Shown here: positions 1-26,357 of the stretch, piece after piece | Layout: each line of letters starts with the position of its first letter | Position numbering within the stretch: the first letter of the stretch is position 1 | IMG/VR virus record: IMGVR_UViG_3300033405_000065 | Span: 1 to 26,612 of that record | Source: a virus | Taxonomy: Duplodnaviria > Caudoviricetes | Length of the DNA: 26,612 nucleotides | Direction: 5' to 3' (one strand) | The notes under the pieces: model-generated | What the model saw: the letters and a program-made list of their open reading frames with translations, nothing else | Database searches by the model: none | Told to the model about the DNA's origin: nothing | Program-made: the position numbers and the translations under genes

Positions 1-110
1 TTAAGGTGATGGAGGACTTCACCGGCTTTTTGAAGGAGCAACTGGGGGAGCCGGGAGAATTGCAGCTTATCGGCTCCCGCATCCGGGCCTGGTTCAGGAG
101 TTTGGAATAG
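1..110 (+). CDS. 3' end of upstream gene, possibly terminase small subunit (partial)
   Basis: Open frame from 3 reads KVMEDFTGFLKEQLGEPGELQLIGSRIRAWFRSLE to TAG at 108-110. The call rests on position upstream of terL and a loose resemblance to DUF1804-type C-termini. Confidence 0.4.
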   Translation, partial: KVMEDFTGFLKEQLGEPGELQLIGSRIRAWFRSLE

Positions 111-204
111 TTCAAAGTTGAAAGTTCAAAGTTCAAAGTTAGAAACCCAGTTTTGACATTGCCTTTGGCTTTAACTTTGAACTTTGAACCTTGAACTTTG
201 AACT
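110..204 (+). repeat. Heptamer-array inverted repeat (GTTCAAA)x4 ... (AACTTTG)x4
   Basis: Arms 110-140 and 173-204 are reverse complements; the loop contains TTGCCTTT. Confidence 0.9.
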
Positions 205-230
205 ATCAACCCTAACCGGAGGAAAAAGAA

Positions 231-575
231 ATGAAGCTGCATCGGATGCAAGCGGTTTTTGCGATGTTCCTGGCCGTGTCCCTGCTGCTCAGCGGCTGCG
301 CGGCCATCGAGAACTTTCTGTGCAGCAACCGGGTGACCATCGAGAACGACATTAGCGCGGCCCAGGCGGCCATCGCCGCGGTGCAGGCCGAATACGGCTC
401 GGTGATCCCGGCCGAGAGCCAGGCCATCATCGCCGCGGCCAACGCGGTGATTAACACGGGGGAAAACATCCTCAACAACGAGGTCTGCCCCACCGACGCG
501 GACGTGCAGACGGTGCAAAACGCCTCCGCCGCCCTGAAACAGGCGAAGATTAAAGCCGGGTGGGTGGCGCCTTAA
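231..575 (+). CDS. Predicted lipoprotein, 114 aa
   Basis: GGAGG RBS; basic N-terminus, hydrophobic stretch and lipobox LLSG|C; Ala-rich helical mature region. Confidence 0.8.
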   Translation: MKLHRMQAVFAMFLAVSLLLSGCAAIENFLCSNRVTIENDISAAQAAIAAVQAEYGSVIPAESQAIIAAANAVINTGENILNNEVCPTDADVQTVQNASAALKQAKIKAGWVAP

Positions 576-576
576 T

Positions 577-646
577 CAGTAAGCAGTGAGCAGTGAGCAG
601 TAGGGGCGGCTTCTAGCCGCCCTTAGCCCACGGAAAACGGAAAACG
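577..646 (+). repeat. (CAGTGAG)x3 array, GTAG REP-like palindrome and (CGGAAAA)x2
   Basis: Array at 577-600; GTAGGGGCGGCTTCTAGCCGCCCT at 600-623; CGGAAAA units at 631-644. Confidence 0.85.
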
Positions 647-658
647 GAGAGAAAAGCT

Positions 659-1441
659 ATGAGTAATCTTCCAGTGGGACGGCTCGGGCGGAAATACGGG
701 TATACCGGTCCTCAGTTGACCGGCATCAGGGCGGTGCCTTTTGACCGGGTGCGCCCCAAAATGACCCTGGCCCAGGCCCCCCCGGTGAAATATCTCATCA
801 CCCCTCCGGTGCGGGACCAGGGGCAGATCGGAGACTGTGTCGAGTTCGCCTGGACCTATTTGAAAAGCGCCAACCTGCTCGTGGCGGGCAAACTCCCCGT
901 ATCCGTGTTCTCGCCCCTGGAGCTCTACTACGACTACCGCGACAAGGTGCTGCACGATGTGGCTGACGACGCCGGCTCCGGCGTCATGGCGGTGGGAACT
1001 CTGCTAACGCAGGATGGGGTATGCCTCGAAGGCCTGTGGCCTTATAACCCGGCTGATTTTGCAGTTAAGCCGCCTGTTACTGCCTATGCTGACGCCCTGC
1101 AAAATAAGTTGGGCTCGGTTCATCCCCTGGAAACCCTGGAGGATATGATCCTCTGCCTAGCGGACGGGTATGGGTTCGTGGCCGGGATCGCGGTTTTCCA
1201 GAGCTTCGAGGATGCCTGGGAGAAGGACGGCATTATCCCGATGCCGGGAGCATCTGAAACCTTTCTTGGCGGCCACGGGGTTTTTGTAGGCGGAGGCTAT
1301 GACCAGGATCAGAGAATCTTCATCGTGGAGAATTCCTGGGGACTTTCCGGAGGGTTGGCAAACCAAAAGGGGTTCTTCTCAATACCTTTCGATTATCTGA
1401 CTGATCCTGATCTGGTCCTGGAGATTGGCACGGGTCGCTAA
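659..1441 (+). CDS. Papain-like cysteine peptidase (C1 family)
   Basis: VRDQGQIGDC (oxyanion Gln and catalytic Cys), GGHGV (His), ENSWG (Asn). Confidence 0.88.
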   Translation: MSNLPVGRLGRKYGYTGPQLTGIRAVPFDRVRPKMTLAQAPPVKYLITPPVRDQGQIGDCVEFAWTYLKSANLLVAGKLPVSVFSPLELYYDYRDKVLHDVADDAGSGVMAVGTLLTQDGVCLEGLWPYNPADFAVKPPVTAYADALQNKLGSVHPLETLEDMILCLADGYGFVAGIAVFQSFEDAWEKDGIIPMPGASETFLGGHGVFVGGGYDQDQRIFIVENSWGLSGGLANQKGFFSIPFDYLTDPDLVLEIGTGR

Positions 1442-1471
1442 AATAGTGCGGCAGGAGGCATAGAGCAGGTA

Positions 1472-1548
1472 TTAGGGAATAGGGGTTAGGGGTCAGAATT
1501 TAGTCTTTTCTGATCCCTAATCCCTGATCCCTAATCCCTAATCCCTGA
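1472..1548 (+). repeat. Heptamer-array inverted repeat (TTAGGGG)-like x3 ... (CTRATCC)x5
   Basis: Arms 1472-1496 and 1510-1548 are complementary; the 3' arm ends 7 nt before the terL ATG. Confidence 0.85.
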
Positions 1549-1555
1549 ATTTAAA

Positions 1556-3198
1556 ATGCTGACTCTCAAACAAAAATTCACCCAGGCGGAGTTTCAAAGG
1601 CGGGCCGATGAGATCTTAGGCCGGCTGTTCCGGGAGGTCACCGCCTTTGGGGACGTGAGCGAATCCGCCAAAAAGGCGCGGCGCGCCCGGAGTATGTCCG
1701 ACCCCTTCGCCTTCTTCACCACCTATCTCCCCCATTATTTCTCCCAGGAGTTCGCGCCCTTTCATCGCGAGCTGGTGGCGCTTTTGGAGCGGCGGCCCGG
1801 CGAAAAAGGTTTTGGGGGGGCGGCGTCCCGCCGCCCTGGGCAGGGAAACCCCGCCCCTGCTACGGAAAACGGAAAACGGAAAACGCTGTCCTGACTCCCG
1901 TCGTGGTGGCCGCGCCCCGGGAGTTCGCCAAGACCACCATCACCTCCTTCGGCTACGTGCTCCACCAGGTCTGCCACGGCCTGCGCCACTTCATCATCAT
2001 CGCCTCCGACACCGAGGACCTGGCCAGCGACCTCACCGGCTATCTCTACCTGGAGCTACTCCACAACGAGCGCCTCAAGTGCGATTTCGGCGAGCTGGTC
2101 CGGGACCACTGGGCGGTGGACGATTTCGTCACCCTCACCGACGTCCGGCTCAAGGCCCGGGGCCGGGGCCAGCGCCTGCGCGGCCTGAAGCACAAACAGC
2201 ATCGCCCCGACCTGATCGTCCTGGACGACGTGGAGAACGACCAGCAGGCCAAATCCCCGGACCTGGTCAAGAAGCTGCTCTCCTGGATCACCGGCGCGGT
2301 CTATCCCGCCATCGAGGCCTCGGGCTCGCTCTTCTGGATCGGCACCATACTGGCCCGCAAGAGTGCCCTCTATACCGCGATACACTCCGAGGAGGAGCCC
2401 TGGAAACACTGGACCCGCAGGATCTACCGTGCACTCAATGAGGACCCCGGGCGGCAAGATGCCGCCCCTACATCATTATGGCCCTCCCGGCACCCGGTGC
2501 CCACGCTCCTGGAGCAGAAGCGCCTCATGGGGTCGCTCGCCTTCAATCGGGAGAAGCAGAACGACCCCGTGGACGAGGAAGGGTTCTTCCAGGAGGCCTG
2601 GTTTCGGTTTTACCATCCCGCGGACCTCAGCGGCAAGGACCTGATCGTGGCGGGGTTCTTCGACCCCTCCATCGGCACCGGCGAGACCGCGGATTATAAG
2701 GCTGTCCTCACCGTGGGGCTGGAGCGCCGGGAGATGATTTTCTACGTCCTGGACGCCTACATCCGCCGGGGTACCCTGGACGAGGCGTTGCGCGCCGCCT
2801 TCATCCGCCACGAGCAATGGAACTACTGGCTCTTCGGGGTGGAGGACAACCTTTTTCAGCGCCTGCTGCTGCGGGAGTTCGACCGGCTGAGTAAAGAGCG
2901 GGGCGTCGTCCTGCCGGTCCGGGGCGTCACCGCCAGGACCGCCAAGGAGACCCGGATCTCCCGGCTTTCGGCCCTGGTGGAGCGGGGCCAGATCCGCTTC
3001 TGCCGGGGCCGGGGTAACCAGGACCTGCTCCTGGAGCAGCTCCTCTATTTTCCGGCCAAAACCGTGCACGACGACGGCCCCGACGCCCTGGAAGGCGCCG
3101 TGGGGCTCCTGGAGGGTGGCGCCAGCATGGGGATCTTCGATTATTACAAAGGGGAGTTTGACACAATGGTGGCCGAGGAGCGCCGTCTTCACGGATAG
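1556..3198 (+). CDS. terL: Terminase large subunit, split across two frames (1556-1894 and the -1 frame continuing to 3198)
   Basis: N-terminal FAFFTTYLPHYF...FHRELV segment; -1 frame reads VLTPVVVAAPREFAKTT (Walker A-like), RPDLIVLDDVEND (Walker B), and nuclease motifs FDPS and HDDGPDALE. Confidence 0.88.
1814..1885 (+). repeat. REP-like double palindrome plus (CGGAAAA)x3 inside terL at the frame break
   Basis: GGGCGGCGTCCCGCCGCCC...GGGCAGGGAAACCCCGCCC resembles the 3791-3837 element; heptamers at 1863-1883. Confidence 0.75.
2449..2471 (-). repeat. GTAG REP-like palindrome in frame within terL
   Basis: Minus strand reads GTAGGGGCGGCATCTTGCCGCCC; + strand encodes GRQDAAPT. Confidence 0.75.
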
Positions 3199-3203
3199 TT
3201 ATT

Positions 3204-3415
3204 AGTGAGCAGTGAGCAGTAAGCAGTAAAAGCAAAGAAAAGGACTTTTTTCAAGGGTTTTAAAAAAGTCATTAAGGCGCTGCCAAAAGTCTAACAAAAT
3301 GCCAAAAAAAGGATTTTTGTCCTAATCAGATTACTTAATTAAAAAAGCAACTTATAAAGGAAAATCTTTTTGTCTTTTGACTTTACTGCTCACTGCTCAC
3401 TGCTCACTGCTTACT
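3204..3415 (+). repeat. Heptamer-array inverted repeat (AGTGAGC)x3 ... (ACTGCTC)x4 around an AT-rich spacer
   Basis: Arms 3204-3227 and 3385-3415; inner inverted repeat GACTTTTTT/AAAAAAGTC at 3243-3270. Confidence 0.9.
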
Positions 3416-3427
3416 TGGGATTAAAAA

Positions 3428-4930
3428 ATGGCTGCTGAACCTAAAAAAATTCCTCTTGCTCCGGAGCTAATCAGCGCCGCCCAATGGGCCGCGGGGCGTC
3501 GTTTCACGCCCACCGGCACGGGCGGCGCGCCGGGGCAGCCGGACCCGAGCCAGGATTTCTTCGGACCCGGGCTGCCCCTGCCGCCCCTGGCCCCCCCCTC
3601 CGCCGCCGGCCGCCAGTTCGACTACCCGGTGGGCTACAATCTGCTGGTCACCCCCCGGGGCGACCTGCCCATCTCGTTTCTGGATCTTAGGAACCTGGCC
3701 CAAAACTGCGACCTGGTGCGCCTGGTGATCGAGACCCGCAAGGACCAGATCAGCAAGATGGGTTGGACCATTAATCCCCTGGAAAAGCACGTAGGGGCGG
3801 CTTCCAGCCGCCCCGGGCGGGTGAAACCCGCCCCTACCGCCTCCGCCTCAGCCCAAGCGCAGGTGAAGGCGGCCACCGCGCTGATGAAGCGCCCCGACGG
3901 GATGCACTCCTTCAACGCCTGGATGCGGATGCTCCTGGAAGACATGCTGGTGATCGACGCGGCCACCCTCTATCCCAGGCTAACCCGCGGGGGCAGCCTC
4001 TATGCCCTGGAGGTGGTGGACGGCGCCACTATCCGCCCCATCGTCGATGAGGGCGGCCGCACCCCGCTCCCTCCGGCCCCGGCCTATCAGCAGATCATCA
4101 AGGGCCTGCCGGCCACCGACTACACCCGGGAGGAGCTGCTCTATTATCCCCGCAACCTTTTGAGCTGGCGCATCTACGGCTTCTCGCCGGTGGAGCAGAT
4201 CATCATCATCACCAACATCATCCTGCGGCGCCAGATGCACCTCCTGCAATACTACACCGACGGCAACCTGCCCGACGCACTGATGGAGGTGCCGGAGAAC
4301 TGGTCCACCGCCCAAATCGCCGAATTCCAGCAATACTGGGACGCCCTGCACGCGGGCAACACCGCCCAGCGGCGCCGGGGCAAATGGGTGCCCCACGGCA
4401 TGACCCCGCACCTGATGAAGGAGGGGGATCTGAAGTCCCCCATCGACGAATGGTTCGCCCGGGTGGTGTGCTACGCCTTTTCGGTGTCGCCCCAGCCCTT
4501 CGTGCAGACGATCAACCGGGCCACCGCCGAGACTGCCCAGGAGGCGGCCCTGAGCGAGGGGCTGGCGCCCCTGATGGAATGGATGGCGGACTTCATCAAC
4601 TATGTCCTCCAGGGCTTCGGGTTCGACCAGGTGGAGTTCGCCTGGGAACAGGACACCGCCATCGACCCCCAGGTGCAGGCCCAGATCGACGACCTGGACG
4701 CGCGCAATGGCATCAGGCTGCGGAGCGAGATCCGGGCCTCCCGGGGCCTGGAGGACGACGGGACCCCGGATTTCATCATGACCGCCCAGAGGGCGGTGCT
4801 GGTGAGCGAGATCGGCAAGGAGAGTAGTGGCACAGGCGTCTCGCCTGTGGCGCCTCCGGAAGAGGAAACGCTTCCGGAAGAGGAAGCGGCGGCGGAAGGC
4901 AAAGGGCAAAAGGTAGGATTGGCCCCTTAG
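3428..4930 (+). CDS. Phage portal protein
   Basis: 500 aa directly after terL; portal-like segments LLEDMLVIDAATLYP, VDGATIRP, YGFSPVEQ and VCYAFSVSP. Confidence 0.88.
   Translation: MAAEPKKIPLAPELISAAQWAAGRRFTPTGTGGAPGQPDPSQDFFGPGLPLPPLAPPSAAGRQFDYPVGYNLLVTPRGDLPISFLDLRNLAQNCDLVRLVIETRKDQISKMGWTINPLEKHVGAASSRPGRVKPAPTASASAQAQVKAATALMKRPDGMHSFNAWMRMLLEDMLVIDAATLYPRLTRGGSLYALEVVDGATIRPIVDEGGRTPLPPAPAYQQIIKGLPATDYTREELLYYPRNLLSWRIYGFSPVEQIIIITNIILRRQMHLLQYYTDGNLPDALMEVPENWSTAQIAEFQQYWDALHAGNTAQRRRGKWVPHGMTPHLMKEGDLKSPIDEWFARVVCYAFSVSPQPFVQTINRATAETAQEAALSEGLAPLMEWMADFINYVLQGFGFDQVEFAWEQDTAIDPQVQAQIDDLDARNGIRLRSEIRASRGLEDDGTPDFIMTAQRAVLVSEIGKESSGTGVSPVAPPEEETLPEEEAAAEGKGQKVGLAP
3791..3837 (+). 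repeat. REP-like doublet (GTAG...CTAC) in frame in portal
   Basis: GTAGGGGCGGCTTCCAGCCGCCCC GGGCGGGTGAAACCCGCCCCTAC, encoding VGAASSRPGRVKPAPT. Confidence 0.85.
4827..4849 (+). repeat. GTGG-type palindrome in portal C-terminus
   Basis: GTGGCACAGGCGTCTCGCCTGTG; sister copies at 11603 and 16208. Confidence 0.8.
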
Positions 4931-4979
4931 CAGAGACAAAATACGGTAAACGGCAAAACAGAAAAAAACCAGAGGGATT

Positions 4980-5744
4980 ATGCAAAAGGAATATCCCCAC
5001 CCTGACCCGCCCGGGCCGCCGCCTGCGCCCGTGAATCTCAAGATCGAGGCGGTCATCACCTGCGTCTCCTACGGCGATTATCTGGCCTGGACGCTGCCGG
5101 CCAATAAGCAGCACTTCAACCGCATGGTAGTGGTCACCCGGCCCGACGATAAGCTTACGCAACAATTGTGCGCCTATTACCACGTCGAGTGCTACCCCAC
5201 CTACGACTGGCACCGGAATGACGACGCCTTCAACAAGGCCAAGGGCATCAATTACGGCCTGTCGCAATTGGCCAAAGACGGCTGGGTGGCGCACCTGGAC
5301 GCCGATATCTACCTGCCGCCCCGCACCCGGGCCATCCTGCAGCGCATCTCTCTGGACCAGGCCTCCCTTTACGGCATCGACCGCATGGAGTGCAAGAGCT
5401 TTGCCGATTGGATCAAGTTTCTGGGAGCGCCGCCCCTTCAGCACGAATGGCAGATCTTCGTCCATCCCCGGCCCTTCCCGCTGGCCGTGCGCATCGCCAC
5501 GCTGGACCGGGACGGCTATGTGCCCATCGGCTTTTTTCAATTATGGAATCCCAAGGGCTCGGGGGTTTCTTATTATCCCGAGCACCATACCACCGCGGCC
5601 CGGAGCGATATGCTGTTCGCCATGCAGTGGCCCCGGGATAAGCGCCATTTGCTTCCGGAAATCATCGCCATCCATCTCGAAAGCGAGTGCGTAGAAATGG
5701 GGGCCAACTGGGAAGGAAGGCAGACAAAACCCTTCAGCCTGTAA
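4980..5744 (+). CDS. GT-A fold (family 2-like) glycosyltransferase
   Basis: N-terminal AVITCVSYGDYL strand, FNKAKGIN, WVAHLDADI (DxD motif), IGFFQL and late SDMLF. Confidence 0.72.
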   Translation: MQKEYPHPDPPGPPPAPVNLKIEAVITCVSYGDYLAWTLPANKQHFNRMVVVTRPDDKLTQQLCAYYHVECYPTYDWHRNDDAFNKAKGINYGLSQLAKDGWVAHLDADIYLPPRTRAILQRISLDQASLYGIDRMECKSFADWIKFLGAPPLQHEWQIFVHPRPFPLAVRIATLDRDGYVPIGFFQLWNPKGSGVSYYPEHHTTAARSDMLFAMQWPRDKRHLLPEIIAIHLESECVEMGANWEGRQTKPFSL

Positions 5745-5746
5745 GG

Positions 5747-5783
5747 GCCGGTACGGGCGGGTTTAAAACCCGCCCGTACCGGC
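5747..5783. repeat. Perfect REP-like inverted repeat
   Basis: GCCGGTACGGGCGGGTTT A AAACCCGCCCGTACCGGC. Confidence 0.85.
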
Positions 5784-5818
5784 AAAATCAAAATCAAGGG
5801 AGCCAAAGGAGAGGTGGC

Positions 5819-6259
5819 ATGAAAAAGCTATTCATTTTCGCACTGATGGTCTTCATCGGGTGCTGCCAGGTTCCCATTTCCAAGGCCCAGGCGCAAACGC
5901 TGGTCCCCTTCGAGATGATGCCGGACAGCCTGGGCCACGCCACCACCCTGGTGCCGCCCGCCGGCCGGTTCATCACCAACCACTCCCTGACGGCGAGCAC
6001 CGCCAAGACCATCACGGTGCCGGCCGGCGCCAACTGGGTCAACTTCTCGCCTTCGGCGAACCTGTGGGTCAATTTCAGCGGCGGGACTGCCGTGATCCCG
6101 TCGGCGGACGTCACGGACGGCTCGGGGACCTACTTCAACCCGCCCATGATGTATGTAGGGCCGATCTATGCCGGAGGGGTCGCCCTCTATCCGGCCCTGA
6201 CCACGATCAGCGTCATATCCGACACCACCTGGGTCTTGACGGCCATGTGGTACAGGTAG
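5819..6259 (+). CDS. Secreted beta-rich hypothetical protein, 146 aa
   Basis: GGAGAGG upstream of ATG 5819; MKKLFIFALMVFIGCC...AQA signal peptide. The ORF track start at 5687 is over-extended. Confidence 0.75.
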   Translation: MKKLFIFALMVFIGCCQVPISKAQAQTLVPFEMMPDSLGHATTLVPPAGRFITNHSLTASTAKTITVPAGANWVNFSPSANLWVNFSGGTAVIPSADVTDGSGTYFNPPMMYVGPIYAGGVALYPALTTISVISDTTWVLTAMWYR

Positions 6260-6263
6260 GGAG

Positions 6264-6372
6264 AGTGAGCAGTGAGCGGTGGGCAGTTAGCAGTAAAAGT
6301 AAAGGCAAAAGCAACCCCAAAAGCAAAAGCTGCGGGACCGCACTGCTCACTGCTTACTGCTCACTGCTCACT
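6264..6372 (+). repeat. Heptamer-array inverted repeat (AGTGAGC)-like x4 ... (ACTGCTC)x4
   Basis: Arms 6264-6294 and 6342-6372; AAAGGCAAAA in the loop. Confidence 0.9.
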
Positions 6373-6387
6373 CAAAGGGAGCGAGGC

Positions 6388-7797
6388 ATGAAAAAGCCGA
6401 TCATTAAATTGCTGCCGCGGCTGCTGCTATCCGGGCTGCTGCTCTCCATCTGCGTGGCCGCGGGGCCGTATAACCCGCCGATACCGCCAAAGCCTATGGT
6501 CTATCCCGGCGCCGGCGTCCCCATGAGCACCGGCTCCGCCTGGGGCACTTCCTACACAGTGGGGACGGCTGCTAATAAGCTGGTGCAGCTTAACAGCAGC
6601 TCGCAGCTTCCCGCAGTCTCCGGTGCCTTACTCACGCACTTGCCTGCCGGCATGGTTTACCCTGGGGCCGGCATAGCCATATCCGCAGGCTCGTCTTGGG
6701 GAACCAGCCTAACCCCCCCAGCCAGCGCCATCGTAGGAATCTCCGATACTCAGACTCTATCGAACAAGAGCTTCGGCTCCGGGATGACCTGGCCGACGCT
6801 TAACCAGAGCACTACCGGCGCAGCCGGCTCGGTAACTGGAGAAACCTTCCCCGCCAGCGGCCTCATTGTCGGCACCACCGACACGCAGACCCTCACCAAT
6901 AAGACGCTGACCGATAGCTCCAATGCTTTTCCTGCTAACTTCGTAACAACGGGCGGAACCCAGACCATCACCAATAAAACCCTGACCTCGCCGACCCTAA
7001 CGACTCCGGCCCTGGGGACTCCCGCTTCGGGGAACCTGGCCAATTGCACCTTTCCGACCCTGAACCAGAGCACCACCGGCGCAGCCGGCTCGGTAACTGG
7101 AGAAACCTTCCCCGCCAGCGGCCTCATTGTCGGCACCACCGACACGCAGACCCTCACCAATAAAACCCTGACCTCGCCGACCCTAACGACTCCGGCCCTG
7201 GGGACTCCCGCTTCGGGGAACCTGGCCAATTGCACCTTTCCGACTCTTAATCAGAGCACTACCGGCGCAGCAGGCTCGGTAACCGGAGAAACCTTCCCCG
7301 CCAGCGGCCTCATTGTCGGCACCACCGATACGCAGACTCTTACCAACAAAACGCTGACCTCGCCGACCCTGACGACTCCGGCTCTGGGGACTCCGGCCTC
7401 GGGCACCCTGACAAATTGTACCGGCCCTTGGCAGCCCCTCCCCATCAATCAATACCAGCTTACCGGCGGCACGGCCATGTCCGCTCCCTCCATCGGCACG
7501 GCGGGCGCAGAATGGCGCTACCATGTCGGCACCAACGGCTCGGGGACCAACACCGGGATAACCGCAGCGACCACGATCCCGGCCCCCTCCGGGACGGCAG
7601 TGGACGGCCAGGTCGGCTACATCACGATATTGAGCGATTCGGGGTCGCACAGTTTGACCTGGAACGGTGCTTATCTTGCCGGGACGACTGTTTCTCTGCC
7701 GGCTACCACGGTGGCCAGCCAGGAATTGGCCTGCGGATTCCGCTATGACCTGGTGCGGGGCGGCTGGCTGTTATTAGCCGGCGCCGGGGGATTTTAA
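6388..7797 (+). CDS. Signal-peptide-bearing Thr/Gly-rich fibre-like repeat protein, 469 aa
   Basis: GGGAGCGAGG before ATG 6388; MKKPIIKLLPRLLLSGLLLSICVAA leader; repeated TQTLTNKTLTSPTLTTPALGTPASG. Confidence 0.75.
   Translation: MKKPIIKLLPRLLLSGLLLSICVAAGPYNPPIPPKPMVYPGAGVPMSTGSAWGTSYTVGTAANKLVQLNSSSQLPAVSGALLTHLPAGMVYPGAGIAISAGSSWGTSLTPPASAIVGISDTQTLSNKSFGSGMTWPTLNQSTTGAAGSVTGETFPASGLIVGTTDTQTLTNKTLTDSSNAFPANFVTTGGTQTITNKTLTSPTLTTPALGTPASGNLANCTFPTLNQSTTGAAGSVTGETFPASGLIVGTTDTQTLTNKTLTSPTLTTPALGTPASGNLANCTFPTLNQSTTGAAGSVTGETFPASGLIVGTTDTQTLTNKTLTSPTLTTPALGTPASGTLTNCTGPWQPLPINQYQLTGGTAMSAPSIGTAGAEWRYHVGTNGSGTNTGITAATTIPAPSGTAVDGQVGYITILSDSGSHSLTWNGAYLAGTTVSLPATTVASQELACGFRYDLVRGGWLLLAGAGGF
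6793..7420 (+). repeat. Intragenic 186-bp (62-aa) tandem repeat, about 2.5 copies plus a partial upstream copy
   Basis: CAGAC...ACCAAYAAAAC recurs at 6961, 7147 and 7333; partial copy at about 6793-6912. Confidence 0.9.
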
Positions 7798-10464: not shown

Positions 10465-10468
10465 AGGA

Positions 10469-10563: not shown

Positions 10564-10575
10564 AAGGGAGGTTAT

Positions 10576-15020: not shown

Positions 15021-15075
15021 TTAACAGGCAATAATTGACCTGAAATTTCTGGGAACCGGGAACCGGGAACTAACC

Positions 15076-15648: not shown

Positions 15649-15659
15649 GGAATGAAGTC

Positions 15660-16091: not shown

Positions 16092-16165
16092 CAGTGAGCA
16101 GTGAGCAGTAAAAGCAAAAACATCAAGACCTTACTGATTACCGATCACTGATTACTGATTACTGA
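16085..16165 (+). repeat. Heptamer arrays (CAGTGAG)x3 ... (ACTGATT)x4
   Basis: Arms 16085-16109 and 16133-16165; spacer nearly identical to 13662-13684. Confidence 0.88.
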
Positions 16166-16179
16166 AAATGGAGGCTGAT

Positions 16180-16461: not shown

Positions 16462-16462
16462 C

Positions 16463-16546
16463 CAGTAATCAGTGATCAGTGGCCAGTGGCCAGTAAAGGC
16501 AAATTCACTGGTTACTGATTACTGATCACTGATCACTGATCACTGA
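16463..16546 (+). repeat. Heptamer-array inverted repeat (CAGTRRY)x4 ... (ACTGATC)x5
   Basis: Arms 16463-16494 and 16507-16546; loop AAAGGCAAATTC. Confidence 0.9.
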
Positions 16547-16561
16547 CCAAAGGAGGCCATC

Positions 16562-17305: not shown

Positions 17306-17311
17306 GCAAGA

Positions 17312-17377
17312 CAGTGATCAGTAATCAGTGGCCAGTGATCAGTAAAGGCAAAAACTGATCACTGATTACTGATAACT
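17312..17377 (+). repeat. Heptamer-array inverted repeat (CAGTGAT)-like x4 ... (ACTGATH)x3
   Basis: Arms 17312-17343 and 17354-17377; the loop is exactly AAAGGCAAAA. Confidence 0.9.
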
Positions 17378-17681
17378 TGGAGACCATAATGGAACCGAAA
17401 CTCGACGGCGTGCCGCTGCGCCTGGGGGATAAAGATTACGTCCTGCCGCCGCTCAACCTGGCGGCCCTGGAGAAATACTGGCCGGTGATCGAGTCCTGGG
17501 GCGAGCCGCCGGCATCACTGGTGCAGCGCCTCTCCGAGGCGGCGGAGTTGCTGCACGCCGCGCTTTTGCGCAATTATCCGGAGCTCACCCTGGCCGAGGT
17601 AAAGGAGGGCCTGGACCTGGCCTCGTTTCCGGCCATCCTGCCCCAGCTCCTGGAGGTGAGCGGCCTGACTCGGCGCCCCCC

Positions 17682-17969
<288 letters not shown>

Positions 17970-18021
17970 CTTTTTACAGAGACAGCAAACAGAAAACAGT
18001 AAACAGAAAATAGGCTTTCCT

Positions 18022-19592: not shown

Positions 19593-19600
19593 CCTGGCAT

Positions 19601-19670
19601 GTAGGGTGGGCATGGGCCCACCAATTCCTTTTGCCTTTAACTTTGAACTCTGAACTTTGAACCTTGAACT
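19601..19670 (+). repeat. GTAG palindrome, TTTTGCCTTT and solo 3' arm (AACTTTG)x4
   Basis: GTAGGGTGGGCATGGGCCCACC at 19601-19622; array at 19639-19670 matches 173-204. Confidence 0.85.
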
Positions 19671-19679
19671 GAGCCTTTT

Positions 19680-20285
19680 ATGAGCGACGCCATCTTCCCC
19701 ATGCTCCGGGGCTTCACCTATCCGGTGATCAAAAAGCCCACCTTCTCCACCATCGAGCAGGAGGCGGTGAGCGGCATTAAAAAGCACATCGCCAACTGGG
19801 TCTATCCCCGCTGGCAGATCGAGATCCCGGTGGAATTCCTGCTGGACGACGTGGCCCACGACGAGCTGAAGACCCTGGTGGGCTTCTTCCTGGCCCGCCA
19901 GGGGCGCTTCGACAGCTTTCTCTTCGACGATCCCGATGACGATTTTATTGCCGGGCAGGAGATCGGGATCGGGGACGGCGCCGCCACCGCCTGGCAACTG
20001 GTGCGGGCCTACGGCGGCTTTATCGAGCCCTGCCTGAATATCAAGAGCGCCCCGGTCCCGGTGGTCTATCTCAGCGGCGCGGCCCAGGCCCCCTCGACAT
20101 ACGCCATCACCTATACCAACTCGGGGCTGCTCACCTTCACCGCGGCCCCGGCCGCGGGCGCGGTGATCACCGCCGACTTCGGCTACTACTGGCGCTGCAT
20201 CTTCCAGGAGGATTTAAGCGAGTTCGACAAGTTTATGAACCAGCTTTGGGAGCACAAGGGAGTCAAGATAGAGACCGTGAAGTAG
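19680..20285 (+). CDS. DUF2460-like distal tail protein
   Basis: KKPTFST, GFFLARQGRFDSFLFDDP, IGIGDG and GAVITADF; follows tape measure. Confidence 0.8.
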   Translation: MSDAIFPMLRGFTYPVIKKPTFSTIEQEAVSGIKKHIANWVYPRWQIEIPVEFLLDDVAHDELKTLVGFFLARQGRFDSFLFDDPDDDFIAGQEIGIGDGAATAWQLVRAYGGFIEPCLNIKSAPVPVVYLSGAAQAPSTYAITYTNSGLLTFTAAPAAGAVITADFGYYWRCIFQEDLSEFDKFMNQLWEHKGVKIETVK

Positions 20286-20332
20286 GGGCTGGTAGGGGCG
20301 GGTTTAAAACCCGCCCTTACACCCGCCCCTAC
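20282..20332 (+). repeat. Nested GTAG REP-like palindrome
   Basis: GTAGGGGCGGGTTTAAAACCCGCCCTTAC followed by a duplicated ACCCGCCCCTAC. Confidence 0.8.
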
Positions 20333-20363
20333 TGGCGCCTCTGCGGTGAATGGGAGACTCGCC

Positions 20364-20618
20364 ATGAAAATTGCCCTGATTTCATTCTTCTGCTATGCGG
20401 TCGGCTTGCTTTGCGGCTTTGTCCTGGCCGCCGTGCTGGGGGCCAGGGCCGCGGCCGCTTACGGCGAGCGCCTGCGGCGCCAGATTGCCGAGGAGGCCCT
20501 GGAGCACGATTACGGAACCTTGGATTCGCCTTTGACTTTAACCGCAAACCGCAAACCGCAAACCGGCCCTTATGAAATCCGTCACCTCAGCCCTGGTCGA
20601 TCTCCTCCGCAGCCGTGA
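20364..20618 (+). CDS. Small membrane protein with N-terminal TM helix, 84 aa
   Basis: GGGAG RBS; MKIALISFFCYAVGLLCGFVLAAVLG; 3' part runs through (AACCGCA)x3 and overlaps the next gene. Confidence 0.5.
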   Translation: MKIALISFFCYAVGLLCGFVLAAVLGARAAAAYGERLRRQIAEEALEHDYGTLDSPLTLTANRKPQTGPYEIRHLSPGRSPPQP

Positions 20619-21501
20619 TCCGGTGCTGGCCTTCGACCTCTATCAATTCACACTGCCCGGCGACACGGTGCTCTATTACGGCACCGCCGACGTGCCCATC
20701 GTTTATAACGGCAACACCTACGGCGGCTCCGTGCGCTTCGACCGCTCCCAGATCGATCTGAAGGCCGGCCTGGAGGCGGACAGCCTTACGGTCAAGGCCT
20801 ACGCCAGCCCCACCGATCTGGTCAACGGCGTCCCCTTCCATCAATTCCTGCGCCAGGGCGGATTCGACAACGCCTATCTGCTCCTGCAGCGCGCCTTCTA
20901 TCCGCACCCCGGAGGCTTGTTCGTGGACGGCTGGTTTACCCCTCCTGGCTGGCTGCTGGCCGGGCAGGCCATCGGGGCGCCCACCGGCGTCGTCTGGCTC
21001 TTCTCCGGCTTGGTCACCGAGGTCATCACCGGCGGCCTGACGGCCCAGATCAAGATAGATTCGCACCTCTACACCCTGGACCGGAAGATTCCCCGCAACC
21101 TTTACCAGCACCTCTGCAACCATGTCCTCTACGGCCAGGACTGCGGGCTGAACGGGGCCTCGTATGCGGTGCCGGGCGACGCCCAGGCCGGGAGCACCAT
21201 CTTTCAGATAGTCACCAACCTGACCGGCTATGTGGCCGGCTATTTTAGCCTGGGGAAGCTCCAATTCACCTCCGGGGCCCTCCAGGGGACCTGGATCGGC
21301 ATCCAAACGCAGGTGGGCGCCGGTTCGCAAGCTGTGACCTTCATCCTAACGCCGCCGCTCCTGGCACCGCCGGCCCCGGGCGACGCCTTCACCGTTTGGC
21401 CCGGCTGCGACCGGGCGCTCAGCACTTGCCGGAACAAATTTAACAATGTCCTCAATTTCCGCGGTTTCCCCTGGATTCCGGTGCCGGAAACCGCGGATTA
21501 G
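20572..21501 (+). CDS. DUF2163 / BR0599-like tail hub protein
   Basis: PRNLYQHLCNHVLYGQDCGL and GDAFTVWPGCDRALSTCRNKFNNVLNFRGFPWIP Cys motifs. Confidence 0.85.
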   Translation: MKSVTSALVDLLRSRDPVLAFDLYQFTLPGDTVLYYGTADVPIVYNGNTYGGSVRFDRSQIDLKAGLEADSLTVKAYASPTDLVNGVPFHQFLRQGGFDNAYLLLQRAFYPHPGGLFVDGWFTPPGWLLAGQAIGAPTGVVWLFSGLVTEVITGGLTAQIKIDSHLYTLDRKIPRNLYQHLCNHVLYGQDCGLNGASYAVPGDAQAGSTIFQIVTNLTGYVAGYFSLGKLQFTSGALQGTWIGIQTQVGAGSQAVTFILTPPLLAPPAPGDAFTVWPGCDRALSTCRNKFNNVLNFRGFPWIPVPETAD

Positions 21502-21503
21502 GG

Positions 21504-21555
21504 GCAGGGGCGGGTTTTAAACCCGCCCCTACACCGAAAACCGGAAACCGGAAAC
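21504..21555 (+). repeat. REP-like palindrome plus (ACCGGAA)-like x3
   Basis: GCAGGGGCGGGTTTTAAACCCGCCCCTAC, then array at 21533-21555. Confidence 0.8.
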
Positions 21556-21564
21556 GGGGTTAAT

Positions 21565-22026
21565 ATGACTATCCTGGAATCAGCCCAGCGCCAGGCGGTC
21601 CTCTCCGTCGCCGAGTCCTGGATCGGCACGCCCTTCCATCACCAGGGCCGGGTCAAGGGGCGCCAGGGCGGCGTCGATTGCGCCATGCTGCTCCTGGAGG
21701 TCTTTTTGAGTGCCGGGGTCATTGACGCCAAACTCGCCGGGCGGCGCTTCTCCTACTCCCAGCAATGGCACCTGCACCGGGAGCAGGAGCGCTATCTGGA
21801 GATGGTCCGGAGTCTCGGTGGCCGGGAGATCACCACCCCCTTGCACGGTGACATCGCGGTCTGGAAGATCGGCCGGGCCTATTCCCACGGGGCCATCGTG
21901 CTCCTCTGGCCTTGTATCATCCATGCCGCGGCCGCGCCCGTCGGCGCCTGTGTCCTGGACAATGCCTACTCCTCGGCCCTGAACCTTAGCCAATTTCCGG
22001 TGAAGTTCTTTACTGCCTGGCCGTAA
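21565..22026 (+). CDS. NlpC/P60-family tail-associated peptidase
   Basis: AESWIGTPFHHQGR...GVDC and SHGAI...IIHA motifs. Confidence 0.85.
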   Translation: MTILESAQRQAVLSVAESWIGTPFHHQGRVKGRQGGVDCAMLLLEVFLSAGVIDAKLAGRRFSYSQQWHLHREQERYLEMVRSLGGREITTPLHGDIAVWKIGRAYSHGAIVLLWPCIIHAAAAPVGACVLDNAYSSALNLSQFPVKFFTAWP

Positions 22027-22092
22027 GGAAGGCAAACTTGGCCTTTAAATTTCACCGAAAACCGGAAACCGGCAGCAACAAGGAGCGTATCC

Positions 22093-22296
22093 ATGAAGGA
22101 AAACGGGACTGTGAAATGGTTCAATGACGCCAGGGGCTACGGCTTCATCAGCCGGCCCGGCAGCGACGACCTCTTCGTCCACTACACCGCCATCGAGGGG
22201 GACGGCTACAAGAGCCTGATCGAAGGCCAGGAGGTAGAGTTCGAGGTGGCCGAGGGCAAAAAGGGCCTCCAGGCCATCAATGTAAGCAAAAGATAG
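22093..22296 (+). CDS. csp: Cold-shock protein (CspA family)
   Basis: GTVKWFN, RNP1-like RGYGFI, RNP2-like LFVHY; AAGGAG RBS. Confidence 0.95.
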
Positions 22297-22401
22297 CTGT
22301 CAGCTTTCAGCAGTAGGGGCGCGGTTAAAACCCGCCCCTCCGCCCAGGCAAAACCTTTGCCTTTGCTTTTAACCAAAAACCGAAGACCGAAAACCGAAAA
22401 C
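22295..22401 (+). repeat. Composite: (AGCTKTC)x2, GTAG palindrome, TTTGCCTTT, (ACCGAAA)-like x4
   Basis: GTAGGGGCGCGGTTAAAACCCGCCCCT at 22313-22339; array at 22372-22401. Confidence 0.75.
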
Positions 22402-22409
22402 AGGCATTT

Positions 22410-25400
22410 ATGTCCGGATTGATGGGCGACTCCGCCGCGGGCACCAGCGGTCGCGCCGCGGCCAAAACCAGCACCCTCCAGGCCTCCTACCGCGTCACCA
22501 CCGCGGTGGAGGGCCTGGCGATCCCCATCCTCTATGGGCGCAACCGCCTCCAACCCAACATCTTCTTCACCTGGGGCTGGCAGGCAATCGCCCAGCCATC
22601 CCCTTCCCAGAGCATGGGCAAAGGCGGGGGCAGCCCCCCCGCGGGGGGCGTCCAGTATGTCTATACCATCTATGCCCTTTTCGGCCTCTGCGAAGGGCTG
22701 GTCAGCGCCATCGGCATCAATTGGAACGACAAGACCAAAATCTACCAGTTCAGCGCCGCGGGCCTGGCCTCCGGCGCCCGGCCCCAGCCCCCGGTCCCCG
22801 TCCTCCTGAGCGGGGCGCCCGCTCAAGCTCTGGGCTATTACGGCACCGCCTTTTACTTTGGGAACATTTATCTTGGCAGCGGCAACTCCATGCCCAACCT
22901 GTCCTGGGAGTGCTACGGGCCGCTTCCCTATACCGTTCCCAAGACCGTGACCGGCGAATCCAATGCCCTGTCGCCGCCTCAAACCTTCACCACCTCCATG
23001 ATCCTGCCGCCCGGCACCTTTGACCCGCTACTTAATCAGGTCCTTTTCTTCCCGCCGTACTTGCCTCCCGGATCCCTGCTTTTTACTCCTCTATCCGTGA
23101 CCCTGACCAACAGGCTTTATAATGGGCTGCCGGAGCCTGATTTAGTCCTTACCCAGGGAACCTGGCAGTATTCCGGCTCCCCCGAGCCGGGGACCTATTG
23201 GGTTGACCCGATGGGGACCGGCGATTACACCTTCTGTCCCCTGGATTCGGGAACCGTGATCTTTTCTTATGCATTGGCCCCGCCCACCTATACAATCATG
23301 GCCCAGTGCCTTGGCACCTGCACCGAGGAATATACCCTCCCCGACGACAACCCGGTCCTCGTGGTCAACAACGCCTTATACGCCGGAGACGCCGGCGTCA
23401 CCCTGAACGACGTCCCCCTCACCCCGATTCCGTATGCGCAGCCGAACCCCATATACCCCCCGGTGGTGGGCCAGGGGCAATATACCGCGTCCTCCGGCAG
23501 TTACTGGTTCTCACCCCTTGACGTGGGCGACCTGTGCATCACCTATTACTGTGCCCTGCCCGCCGGCGCCACGATCTCCCCCAGCGGCAACGTCTGGGTG
23601 TCCGACGCCGGCGCCACCTATGACGACGGCACTGCCCTCACCCTGGTCCCCGGCGTTCCTACCGCGGCCGGTCAATACTCCGTCAGCGCCGGCACTTACA
23701 CCTTCTCCGGCTGGGACTCCGGCCGCACCATCCTGCTTAATTACGCCTATAACACGCTGCTCGACTCCAACCCGGCCGATTTCCTCCCCGACCTGCTCAC
23801 CTCGCCCGATTACGGCGCGGGCTTCGACCCCGCCAAAATCGGCGATCTCAGCCAGTTTTCCGACTACTGCCTGGCCAACGATTTCCTCTTATCTCCCGTT
23901 CTCGACGAGCAGCAGGAGGCCCGGGAGCAGGTCGCCGACATCCTCAAACTCCTCAACACCCAGGTCGTCTGGTGCGAAGACCAGCTCAAGTTCATTCCGC
24001 TGGGGGACCAGGTCGTAGAGAGCGCCAGGACCGGCGTCACCTTCACTCCCGACCTCACGCCGGTCCTCGATCTCACCGAAGACGATTTCTTGAGCGACGA
24101 CAACAACGACCCGATCCAGATCACCCGCACCCCCCAGGCCGACGCCTATAACCAGGTGCAGCTCGAATACCTGGACCGCTACGCCGACTACAATACCACC
24201 ATCTACACCGCCAACAACCAGGCGGCCCAGGACGTCTACGGCCTGCGGCCGGCCGACGTCGTCATGGCCCATGCCATCACCGATCCCACGGTGGCGGCCC
24301 TGGTGGCTGCCAATATCCTGCAATATTGCCTCTATGCCCGGAACACTTACCAGTTCAAGCTGGGCGTCATCGCCAATATTTTAGAGCCCGGCGACTGGAT
24401 CACCGTCACCTGCCCCCGCCTCGGGCTAAATCAGATGCCCCTCAGGGTCACCGAGATCTCCGAGGATGACCAGATGACCTCCACGGTCACGGCGCTGGAA
24501 TGGCCCATCGGCGCCGCCCAGGCCCCCACCTTCCCCACCCAGAACCGCTCGCCTCTGCTCATCAATTACAACGCCGCGCCAATGGACTGCAACCCGCCGG
24601 TCATCTTCGAGCCGCCCCTGGGACTGAGCGACAATCTTTCGGTCTGGATGGCGGTGAGCGGCGGCCCCAATTGGGGCGGCTGCCAGGTCTGGGTGTCGCT
24701 GGACCACGCCACTTATCAGCAGGCGGGCGTGGTCTCGGCCCCGGCGCGCACCGGCTCCCTTATTAACCCGCTCCCCGCCTCCCCCGATCCCGACCTCACC
24801 GACACCTTGGCGGTGGATCTGAGCGAGTCCCGAGGAGTGCTGCTTTCCGCCTCCCAGGTCGAGGCGGACGCCCTGGTGACCCTGTGCTACCTGTCCGGGG
24901 GCGCCGGCCTCCCCTCCGAACTCATCGCCTACCGGGACGCCCAGCTCGTCAGCGCTTCGATTTACCACCTGAACTACCTGCGCCGGGGCTGCTATGGCTA
25001 CGGCGGCACCGCAGGGACGGCCCACGCGGCAGGCGAGCGCTTCGCCCGCCTGGACGGCGCCGTCTTTAAACTCCCTTTCTTGGCCAACCAGATCGGCCAG
25101 ACCATCTATATTAAATTTCTTTCTTACAACCTGGTGGGTGGGGCTGTCCAGAGCCTAGCTGACGTGGATGCTTACCAATATCAGATCACCGGGAGCGCCC
25201 TCACCTCGCCGCTTCCGAATATCACCGGCCTGATGTCGGTGTACCAGAACAACCAGCTTTATCTCCAATGGAACGCCATCTCTCCCTCCCAGGACCCGCG
25301 TTACTCCCAGATCAATTACGAGATCCGCATGGGCGCCAGTTGGGCCACCGCCCAGGTCCTGGGCTGGGTGAGCGATCCGGAATTCCTGGTGGCGCAGCCT

Positions 25401-26261
25401 GGGACCTATTGGGTGGCGGCCCATTATGCATACGGCGGCATTACCCTGGCCTATTCGGCCGACCCCGCCGAGATCCAGGTGGGAAGCGTCACCCTCACGG
25501 TAAATAGCCTGGTGAGCCGGGACGAATTTGCCGAAGGCTGGCCCGGCACGCTCACCGGCCTCCAGGTGAGCGGCGGCGATCTGGCGCTGGGGGTGGGGCA
25601 GAGCGCGGGTTATTACACCATCCCGGCCGGCGAGATCCCGGATCTGGGCGCGGCCCAGGCTGCGGCGCTCGGTGGTTCCCTCGCCTTCAACAACGTGGTT
25701 CCCGGACCCTCTTTCGACGCCGCTCCCGACGTGGACGCCATCCCGGACGTGGATCAATACGATGCAGGGGCTGGAGGCCAATTCGACCAGGTGCCGGACG
25801 TGGACGCGGTTCCCGACTTCGACCAGGCCGGGGGCCCGCTGGCCCAGACCGCCCAGATCCAGGCGCAGTTCTCCCAGGACGGCAGCACCTGGGGGGACTG
25901 GCAGAATTTTATTCCGGGGACCTACGTATTTTGGAAGGTGAATTTCCGGCTGGCCCTGATCCAGGTGGTGCAAGGGAACGTGACTCTTAATCCCATGGTT
26001 ACCGACTTCGCCTGGTCAGTGGCCATGCCGGACCGGATCATTCAGGTGGGCTCCATATCGTGCCCCGCCACCGGGCTGGCCATCACCTTCACCCCGGCCT
26101 TTCAGATCACGCCGGCCATCGCGGTGACGATACTGAACTCCCAGCCTGGGGACGTGGTGACCTTCCCCACGGCCATCGGGCCGGCCGGGGGCACCATCAT
26201 GGTCACTAACGGCGGCGCCGGCGTGCTGCGTAACATCAGTTACATCGCCAAGGGCTATTAA
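22410..26261 (+). CDS. Large tail-tip / host-specificity protein (gpJ-like), 1283 aa
   Basis: IPILYGRNRL N-terminus, DSNPADFLPDLLT, YNQVQLEYLDR, LEPGDWITV and YLRRGCYG; follows hub and NlpC genes. Confidence 0.85.
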   Translation: MSGLMGDSAAGTSGRAAAKTSTLQASYRVTTAVEGLAIPILYGRNRLQPNIFFTWGWQAIAQPSPSQSMGKGGGSPPAGGVQYVYTIYALFGLCEGLVSAIGINWNDKTKIYQFSAAGLASGARPQPPVPVLLSGAPAQALGYYGTAFYFGNIYLGSGNSMPNLSWECYGPLPYTVPKTVTGESNALSPPQTFTTSMILPPGTFDPLLNQVLFFPPYLPPGSLLFTPLSVTLTNRLYNGLPEPDLVLTQGTWQYSGSPEPGTYWVDPMGTGDYTFCPLDSGTVIFSYALAPPTYTIMAQCLGTCTEEYTLPDDNPVLVVNNALYAGDAGVTLNDVPLTPIPYAQPNPIYPPVVGQGQYTASSGSYWFSPLDVGDLCITYYCALPAGATISPSGNVWVSDAGATYDDGTALTLVPGVPTAAGQYSVSAGTYTFSGWDSGRTILLNYAYNTLLDSNPADFLPDLLTSPDYGAGFDPAKIGDLSQFSDYCLANDFLLSPVLDEQQEAREQVADILKLLNTQVVWCEDQLKFIPLGDQVVESARTGVTFTPDLTPVLDLTEDDFLSDDNNDPIQITRTPQADAYNQVQLEYLDRYADYNTTIYTANNQAAQDVYGLRPADVVMAHAITDPTVAALVAANILQYCLYARNTYQFKLGVIANILEPGDWITVTCPRLGLNQMPLRVTEISEDDQMTSTVTALEWPIGAAQAPTFPTQNRSPLLINYNAAPMDCNPPVIFEPPLGLSDNLSVWMAVSGGPNWGGCQVWVSLDHATYQQAGVVSAPARTGSLINPLPASPDPDLTDTLAVDLSESRGVLLSASQVEADALVTLCYLSGGAGLPSELIAYRDAQLVSASIYHLNYLRRGCYGYGGTAGTAHAAGERFARLDGAVFKLPFLANQIGQTIYIKFLSYNLVGGAVQSLADVDAYQYQITGSALTSPLPNITGLMSVYQNNQLYLQWNAISPSQDPRYSQINYEIRMGASWATAQVLGWVSDPEFLVAQPGTYWVAAHYAYGGITLAYSADPAEIQVGSVTLTVNSLVSRDEFAEGWPGTLTGLQVSGGDLALGVGQSAGYYTIPAGEIPDLGAAQAAALGGSLAFNNVVPGPSFDAAPDVDAIPDVDQYDAGAGGQFDQVPDVDAVPDFDQAGGPLAQTAQIQAQFSQDGSTWGDWQNFIPGTYVFWKVNFRLALIQVVQGNVTLNPMVTDFAWSVAMPDRIIQVGSISCPATGLAITFTPAFQITPAIAVTILNSQPGDVVTFPTAIGPAGGTIMVTNGGAGVLRNISYIAKGY

Positions 26262-26262
26262 C

Positions 26263-26357
26263 CAGTGAGCAGTGATCAGTGAGCAGTAATCAATAAAACT
26301 AAAATTTCCGGGGTTTTTTTGCCTTTACTGCTCACTGCTCACTGCTCACTGCTCACT
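26263..26357 (+). repeat. Heptamer-array inverted repeat (CAGTGAG)-like x4 ... TTTTGCCTTT(ACTGCTC)x4
   Basis: Arms 26263-26291 and 26327-26357. Confidence 0.9.

Follow-up and report, generated by a model that had tools for sequence, protein, structure and literature searches.

Several described systems, cited here from excerpts of the articles, offer points of comparison for the repeats reported below. In Coxiella burnetii, the intervening sequence (IVS) of the 23S rRNA carries a four-helix-bundle gene and tandem heptamers and is excised by RNase III; the heptamers upstream of its open reading frame (ORF) vary in number between strains, and a pentameric structure is cited for the S23p/PF05635 family (PMC4990558). 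Repetitive extragenic palindromic (REP) sequences and bacterial interspersed mosaic elements (BIMEs) are precedents for repeats that supply stop codons, lie at convergent sites, insert in frame and stall ribosomes when placed no more than 15 nt from the stop (PMC3733652, PMC12306157). TAACTGA heptamers of Beggiatoaceae, Cyanobacteria and Bacteroidetes stand in 2–6 copies just upstream of starts, in fixed orientation, often without a Shine-Dalgarno (SD) site and also in ribosomal-protein operons, and translational regulation has been proposed for them (PMC4679880). Gene transfer agents (GTAs) and vertically inherited orthologous prophages are, in turn, precedents for phage-type gene clusters kept at a fixed locus (PMC5721377, PMC5381585). 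Here we analyse the 26,612-nt DNA of the virus record IMGVR_UViG_3300033405_000065 (Duplodnaviria; Caudoviricetes), hereafter the window, a run of head-tail genes on one strand in which arrays of 7-nt repeats stand at most gene junctions.

To our knowledge, no explanation has yet been given for heptamers, which in many bacteria are the most frequent of the long simple repeats, and PF05635 proteins are without a known job. The feature described here is real and striking: a dense local build-up of a host element. We consider it probable that the arrays are gene-less copies of a heptamer-armed PF05635 element of the host, which entered at gene ends and in tolerant loops, decayed by slippage and arm exchange, and shares its slots with REP-like hairpins.

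The window holds 33 arrays of period 7 at score 11, compared to a mean of 0.03 and a maximum of 1 in 30 first-order Markov sequences. In our own scan, the other periods from 4 to 13 gave 0–1 arrays each, and period 14 gave 19, a harmonic of 7. Following an automatic rule, at least one heptamer arm was assigned to 22 of 27 junctions and both arms to 12; this rule missed the arm at 1472–1493, which Tandem Repeats Finder caught. All the arrays listed in an earlier note, made from the sequence alone, were recovered by Tandem Repeats Finder and our scan where that note had placed them, and of 11 two-armed junctions from its list that were folded, 10 did so significantly (z −2.1 to −8.5), the exception being 14165–14246 (z −0.6); for 3198–3428 the fold reached z −9.2. 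At about ten junctions of the window there is a single arm or a pair of unrelated arms; of those that were folded, the majority lack a significant stem (573–661, z −1.6; 12036–12126, z +1.3; 17967–18024, z −0.1; 19590–19682, z −0.2; 22294–22412; group range +1.3 to −1.9). Heptamer arrays lie within coding sequence too (1862–1885, 11323–11385 and 17871–17901), and REP-like hairpins of the GTAG type stand in place of heptamers at 600–622, 5751–5779, 19601–19622 and 20282–20332. The view that the stems are not classical terminators agrees with our data: positions 1–20000 contain 24 terminator sites compared to 21.9 in shuffled sequences, hence no excess, and in this same scan no plus-strand site with a GC stem and U tract fell at a heptamer stem. 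A sigma-70 promoter scan showed no excess either, and an Rfam search of the window gave no match.

Relatives of the capsid protein at 83–100% identity are virus records and genome bins of Desulfobaccales or delta-proteobacteria (below, G-numbers denote genomes, C-numbers contigs and L-numbers related loci or records). The same words as in the window recur in the host: a 760-kb sample of G003, about one fifth of that genome and with genes called by our own approximate caller, held 80 arrays, 2 of them inside called genes, and on the host chromosome (order Desulfobaccales) the density is about one array per 10 kb. In the host, arrays occupied 14 of the 64 convergent junctions, 44 of the 475 co-directional ones and 6 of the 61 divergent ones. 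Reading 68 host arms outward from the gene end, G exceeded C in 50 and C exceeded G in 10, with 8 ties. This polarity was alike at stop ends and start ends, and the same in PF05635 loci; therefore, it belongs to the ends of the element and not to stop–start pairs. The constant feature is which word points outward from the gene. A purine-rich 5' arm, proposed earlier as typical, is not general, since pyrimidine-rich 5' words (CGGTTTT, CTGTTTT) occur in relatives and in the host. At a lower threshold, host ribosomal-protein regions carry 3–5 arrays per 20 kb (L227, L229, L232, L234), at a small number of slots, occupied or vacant depending on the species. A host hot spot was also observed, in which several successive junctions are occupied around xseA-xseB-ispA-like genes (L154 1485–3740), names judged from N-terminal sequences and not from a family search.

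PF05635 proteins are four-helix bundles that may resemble the Avd protein of diversity-generating retroelements, and their genes are present in five of five hosts. Thirty loci were fetched and a duplicate (L195) was dropped; arrays on both sides were seen at 20 of the remaining 29 loci compared to 20 of 570 host genes, a count in which L183, being mis-oriented, was scored as unarmed, although a later look revealed arrays upstream of it. A single heptamer word goes with each subfamily of these proteins. Specifically, PF05635 proteins sharing a word are at least 77% identical (20 pairs, many of them orthologues and hence not independent), whereas those with different words are at most 75% identical (211 pairs). 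The words flanking these genes are CAGTGAG, GTTCAAA, CAGTAAT/GAT, CGGTTTT and CTGTTTT, together with CAGGGAT upstream of L183 only; no cassette carrying ACGGAAA was found among the loci examined. The arms of the window share words with the host cassettes, as well as their fixed polarity (a word on the left, its reverse complement on the right). Only the host cassettes have a PF05635 ORF, none being detected among the 28 proteins scanned in the window. In addition, a AAAGGCAAAA-like inner linker adjoins 10 of 34 arrays in the window, 62 of 203 in its kin and 13 of 111 in the host, compared to 3 of 295 background sites.

The host cassettes thus resemble the IVS, as described in the excerpts, in consisting of a four-helix-bundle gene within terminal inverted repeats with heptamers. 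They differ in their surroundings: the IVS is located in rRNA and excised by RNase III, whereas the copies in the window are gene-less and lie between or within protein genes. With the GTAG REPs and their REP-associated tyrosine transposases (RAYT), as far as the cited texts describe them, the heptamer elements have in common hairpins 3' of ORFs at co-directional and convergent sites, the supply of stop codons and in-frame insertion, and here they also share slots. Unlike those REPs, the heptamer arms are tandem arrays of many word families, linked to PF05635 genes and not to a known transposase; the GTAG foot with a short palindrome is absent from them and is found in the separate REP-like hairpins. 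TAACTGA itself is among the 3' arm units of the window, but the excerpts on that repeat describe single-word direct arrays, with no mention of paired arms, many families, PF05635 cargo or a prophage hot spot. In the literature consulted, mainly open-access articles without their supplements, we met no account of paired heptamer arms round PF05635 genes in operons as a class, and PMC6749651 contributes nothing on paired arms in its excerpts. Arms of an 8-nt period, GGGGAAAA/TTTTCCCC-like, and 9-nt-like ATCGGCG hairpins were seen in the same slots (L031, L005, L180, L187), and the former also flank one PF05635 subfamily.

As to mechanism, we infer that the elements would enter junctions that were originally compact; in this way the 5' arm would come to lie at the stop codon, which in many cases it would supply, and the 3' arm would reach the ribosome site. 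In the alleles the arms begin a median of about 3 nt past the stop and end about 15 nt ahead of the start, a spacing expected for inserts in compact junctions. Inserts would persist only at junctions or, in frame, in surface loops; arms would then be lost by slippage or exchanged singly, perhaps via the shared inner linker, and GTAG REP-like hairpins would come to occupy the same slots. The cluster may gather inserts owing to a rate of evolution above that of host genes and to expression that is probably rare. As a side effect, long stems in the mRNA might act like E. coli REPs, blocking 3' decay, stalling terminating ribosomes and offering sites to RNase III.

The density of arrays changes sharply at the borders of the phage-type cluster. 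Specifically, we counted 25 arrays in 32.5 kb inside versus 0 in 47.5 kb of flank in G002, 28 in 31 kb versus 1 in 49 kb in G001, and 17 in 32 kb versus 1 in 19 kb in G005. Arrays were present in 10 of 11 close virus loci, L006 (7.3 kb) having none at this threshold, and amounted to 9 in total over 1.63 Mb in 108 distant loci. A phage-specific system was ruled out by the host distribution and by these distant relatives. In the same order, G007 carries a Mu-like prophage with GemA and the same gene order as the cluster; its junctions mostly measure −4 to 17 nt and it has a single array in 20 kb, although the G007 host carries the repeats.

In G002, G001 and G005 the cluster spans about 32 kb, with tRNA-Lys(CTT) at one end and an HMA chaperone gene at the other (G002:C66 57330–89782; G001:C22 244460–275484; also G005:C123 and L001/L235), and contains head, tail and lysis genes only, the absence of replication genes being judged from ORF lists. 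The same pair of flanks is seen in a virus record whose capsid is 99% identical to that of the window; therefore, although the window itself stops short of these flanks, it very likely derives from this locus. A match to the tyrosine integrase family PF00589 was absent from the G002 and G005 contigs, and the nearest one in G001 lies about 140 kb away. The distribution is patchy, since the tail tube occurs in 6 of 15 genomes of the genus and the capsid in 7 of 83 of the order, while at the same place G040 has a 6-kb remnant (L260 3063–9795, G040:C38), which keeps a holin, a different endolysin and virion-like genes. Broken copies exist, being frameshifted, inverted or deleted: in G001:C22 / L084 an internal inversion of about 18 kb is accompanied by truncation of the NlpC-like gene. 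The cluster is a grounded prophage. An active temperate phage was ruled out by the fixed flanks and the missing integrase.

The ratio of nonsynonymous to synonymous substitution rates (dN/dS) is 0.25–0.31 in the cluster, compared to 0.25–0.39 in flanking host genes and 0.15–0.27 in the ribosomal-protein region, while cluster dS is 2–4 times that of both sets of host genes, with the genome pairs ranked in the same way. The cluster is mosaic from gene to gene; local amplification or recombination with other copies are possible sources of the high dS. Judged from its genes, the cluster is possibly a GTA. Like the GTAs and orthologous prophages of the cited excerpts, it has structural genes only, no integrase nearby and a fixed locus. 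Its low dN/dS and the ranking of its dS suggest that it may also share their vertical divergence under purifying selection, but the high dS, the mosaic structure and the damaged copies blur this pattern. It differs from GTAs in belonging to an unrelated lineage with a Mu-like relative, as well as in its patchiness (the 6 of 15 genomes and the one remnant) and its damaged copies. No GTA of Desulfobaccales is described in the literature consulted.

To follow the junctions across relatives, we assembled 159 distinct alleles of 19 junctions from the window together with 14 records or contigs related to it within the same lineage, excluding four junctions with extra ORFs or unreliable starts; since related records share history, the allele and junction counts are not fully independent. 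A heptamer array is present in 109 alleles and a REP-like motif, by a loose rule, in 35; 146 are at least 40 nt long, 106 fold at z ≤ −2, and the remaining 53 are not significant or empty. One and the same junction can show up to nine different 5' words, other hairpin types or no insert at all, and the empty, one-armed and differently filled alleles at orthologous sites indicate gain and loss of the heptamer element as a unit. The stop codon is often altered together with the insert, and copy number changes by whole units between near-identical kin. Families are also swapped in frame in loops of the terminase, portal and protease, where there is neither a stop nor a start; the G007 terminase has a short loop at the insert site. 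Tandem two- to threefold duplication of whole junction units, including ribosome site and start codon, was noted at the terL-portal and tube-chaperone junctions of L156 and at hub-NlpC in L082.

Comparing four pairs of relatives, the junctions less than 70% identical were 10/13, 11/11, 10/11 and 9/9 in the cluster, versus 6/27, 4/18, 1/6 and 9/25 in host operons of the same pairs. When only host junctions of at least 40 nt were considered, the values rose to 6/13, 4/7, 1/5 and 8/12. Long host junctions therefore diverge as well and turnover is host-wide; what distinguishes the cluster is that nearly every junction is a slot. Even between the window and its 99% relative, 8 of 16 junctions differ. 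Since the gaps differ at almost every junction between close relatives, the junction inserts are likely tolerated mobile elements and not purpose-built punctuation.

The earlier note had claimed that a change of word leaves period, polarity and pairing intact, and at the level of the word family this holds across relatives also: the two arms match within one mismatch per unit in 36 of 63 distinct two-arm alleles (permutation null 8.9, maximum 20, n = 5000). Exact complementarity was found in 9 of the 63 (null 2.6, maximum 10), and in 27 the match is looser or hybrid. That partner arms change together proved too strict a statement, because the hairpins at 10469, 13631 and 16085 join CAGTGAG to the CAGTGAT/CAGTAAT family. 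These figures bear on the idea that there is no mobile element and that the arrays form in place, slippage and template switching copying an arm to its mirror position. Whole-unit changes in copy number would suit such an origin, and slippage is a published proposal for the excess of heptamers (Mrazek 2007, as summarised in the excerpts of PMC4679880). We regard it as highly improbable nevertheless, given that exact complementarity is so infrequent, that a few words, tied to PF05635 subfamilies, are common to distant loci, that the inner linker is shared and that unrelated hairpins replace whole slots.

The earlier note had preferred a dedicated punctuation system of the operon, in which the stems, read in a 7-nt register, would set each stop codon beside the next start for translational coupling. 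Folding does cut the median gap from 100 to 24 nt, several starts are without an SD site, and AGGAGG stands just 5' of the stem at 1441–1556. However, the folded path has the same median of 24 nt with an SD site (107 alleles) and without one (49 alleles; p 0.53), and paths of at most 20 nt are found in 22/49 alleles without and 43/107 with an SD site (p 0.60). The start at 19680, for which bridging had been suggested, has no preceding heptamer stem. In the covariation check, 771 positions gave 16 G-U versus 28 A-C mismatches, a trend in the opposite direction (p 0.10); the lack of a G-U excess means that there is no sign of selection for pairing in the sense-strand RNA. Furthermore, the families are host-wide, convergent host junctions are armed at least as often as co-directional ones and divergent junctions carry arms too, and at the same junctions and protein loops heptamers give way to empty sites or, freely, to non-periodic REP-like hairpins. 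Such a system is therefore very unlikely in our judgement, and the selfish host repeat family, which the earlier note had named as its alternative, gives the best fit.

A number of observations nonetheless weigh against inserts that are merely tolerated. The high occupancy maintained through turnover is also expected under selection for "some hairpin". Junctions that are coupled in G007, mostly without an SD site, are filled in the cluster (an SD site is present in 1 of 12 cases for the tail terminator gene and in 0 of 11 for the tape measure gene), and overlapping or very short junctions of the host ribosomal-protein operon stay empty. Neither a mobilising enzyme nor a target duplication was identified around the elements; host Y1-type transposases (PF01797) gave matches in five of five genomes, with REP motifs, searched by our own patterns, near 1 of 12 of their loci. 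Cluster dN/dS is as low as that of the flanks, so that the proteins have not simply been released from selection. Finally, the array-rich lineage has gained a cold-shock gene that is found in 0 of 108 distant loci.

The main rival, which we consider unlikely, is co-option as an RNA-processing code: hairpins that were once mobile, of whatever family, would now be needed to segment, stabilise or dampen a long mRNA by RNase III cuts, a block to 3' decay or ribosome stalling, with the cluster's own cold-shock protein melting the stems as a chaperone. The significant folding of two thirds of the alleles despite turnover, including 12/12 at capsid-to-hyp2 and 12/12 at neck-to-terminator, is consistent with it, as are the purifying selection on cluster proteins and the restriction of the cold-shock gene to the array-rich lineage. 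The start of the arms lies within the 15 nt given for REP-induced stalling in the excerpts of PMC12306157, and those of PMC4679880 name cold-shock (Csp) proteins as candidate heptamer binders. Yet a third of the alleles are non-folding or empty, among them the protease-to-capsid junction of the window and 10/10 portal-to-GT alleles, the G-U excess is absent, and coding loops show the same turnover. Moreover, the gain of the cold-shock gene is a single event, and the copy in G004:C3 is without this gene yet has 18 arrays in 13.5 kb. The cold-shock-to-tail-J junction (L001 20686–21040; L207 15663–16100) contains copied upstream parts of the cluster at 88–97% identity, perhaps a duplicated promoter or leader.

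A composite of these ideas appears still less likely to us, namely a Mu-like head-tail cluster that a Desulfobaccales lineage would have domesticated as a GTA, with interchangeable hairpin modules from the mobile pool of the host, output control by RNase III and the cold-shock protein, and word-specific PF05635 pentamers. Here any family would serve if its stem spanned the stop to the ribosome site, and the four-helix-bundle pentamers would move or bind the modules; the arrays mostly have 3–5 units.

Under the reading that we favour, gene-less copies of the host PF05635 element, what the window contributes is a hot spot with sharp borders, counts of turnover and a cluster at a fixed locus. The cluster provides a natural series of about 20 slots in a dozen relatives, with hairpin families gained, lost and swapped between proteins 70–100% identical, an outgroup with empty junctions and sharp borders to repeat-poor flanks, and this allele series makes the insertion mechanism and the RNA effect directly testable. 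In addition, the case illustrates that a record of this type filed as a "virus" can turn out to be a chromosomal cluster at a fixed locus, possibly a GTA not described before.

Table 1. Positions of the cluster, its inserts and selected genes in the window, with observations on the same junctions in related copies
Feature	Positions	Strand	Remarks
Head-tail structural cluster	231..26612	+	terminase, portal, protease, capsid, neck, tail tube, tape measure, DUF2460, hub, NlpC-like, tail J-like, fibre start
GTTCAAA/TTTGAAC two-armed hairpin	109..204	+	z −8.2; 3' word also follows the PF05635 gene of L178
Hybrid slot	573..648	+	CAGTGAG arm, GTAG REP-like stem 600–622, unrelated ACGGAAA arm; z −1.6; overlapping empty allele in L003
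TAGGGGT/ATCCCTA hairpin	1472..1546	+	precedes terL, a gene without SD site; z −6.7
Terminase-loop insert	1809..1885	+	REP-like stem and ACGGAAA array
CAGTGAG/CTCACTG hairpin	3204..3415	+	AT-rich loop of ~155 nt; z −9.2; six different 5' words across window and kin
GTAG REP-like insert, in frame in portal	3791..3837	+	in kin: GTTCAAA arrays, ACGGAAA arrays or no insert
REP-like hairpin	5751..5779	+	occupies heptamer-free junction; z −6.2
CAGTGAG/CTCACTG hairpin	6264..6372	+	z −7.3; G005 allele empty, 10 nt
Hybrid-family hairpin (CAGTGAG, ATCACTG; related families)	10469..10563	+	z −5.0
CAGGGAT/AACCCCT hairpin, in frame inside protease gene	11323..11385	+	z −3.2
Orphan CAGTGAG arm	12038..12061	+	provides protease stop codon; no stem ahead of capsid gene, z +1.3
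Post-capsid hairpin, CAGTGAG with ATTACTG	13631..13725	+	z −5.4; six different 5' words among two-armed alleles
Decayed CAGGGGT/TAACCCC pair	14173..14230	+	overlaps end of small ORF; z −0.6
Mismatched arms CAGTGAG; GGGAACC flanking small ORF	14849..15070	+	arms matched in L003
CAGTGAT/ATCACTG hairpin	15554..15648	+	z −4.2; 4-nt gene overlap in G007 prophage
Hairpin, arms from two related families	16085..16165	+	z −2.1
CAGTGAT-family hairpin	16463..16546	+	z −6.5; junction of 3 nt in G007 prophage
CAGTGAT-family hairpin	17312..17377	+	z −4.7; junction of 3 nt in G007; nine different 5' words among two-armed alleles
Orphan arrays	17871..18010	+	ACCGAAA in second tail-chaperone frame; ACAGAAA ahead of tape measure gene
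Tape measure gene	18022..19592	+	frameshifted in G/C run near 18200 (~18195–18230); single ORF in kin
REP-like stem and orphan ACTTTGA arm	19601..19670	+	z −0.2
GTAG REP-like hairpin (20282–20332) and orphan AACCGCA arm (20540–20565)	20282..20565	+	
REP-like stem and orphan ACCGGAA arm	21505..21555	+	
Orphan ACCGGAA arm	22054..22072	+	
Cold-shock-domain gene	22093..22296	+	inside tail region; restricted to array-rich lineage
Orphan ACCGAAA arm, preceded by REP-like stem	22371..22401	+	
CAGTGAG/CTCACTG hairpin	26263..26357	+	z −8.5

Two genes of the window are disrupted. The terL gene is frameshifted at 1809–1894, a site that in its kin is in frame and holds other families, and the split tape measure gene recurs in L010, a record identical to the window, being intact in the other kin. 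Overlapping tail-chaperone frames are the layout of tailed phages with a programmed frameshift, and in the chaperone pair at 17389–17969 a second, overlapping frame lies ahead of the tape measure gene. In the head region, accessory genes at 659–1441, 4980–5744 and 7798–10464, encoding a peptidase-like protein, an unassigned protein of 254 aa and a low-GC LamG-domain protein, differ between copies, the peptidase being swapped for a different one in G001, G002 and G003.

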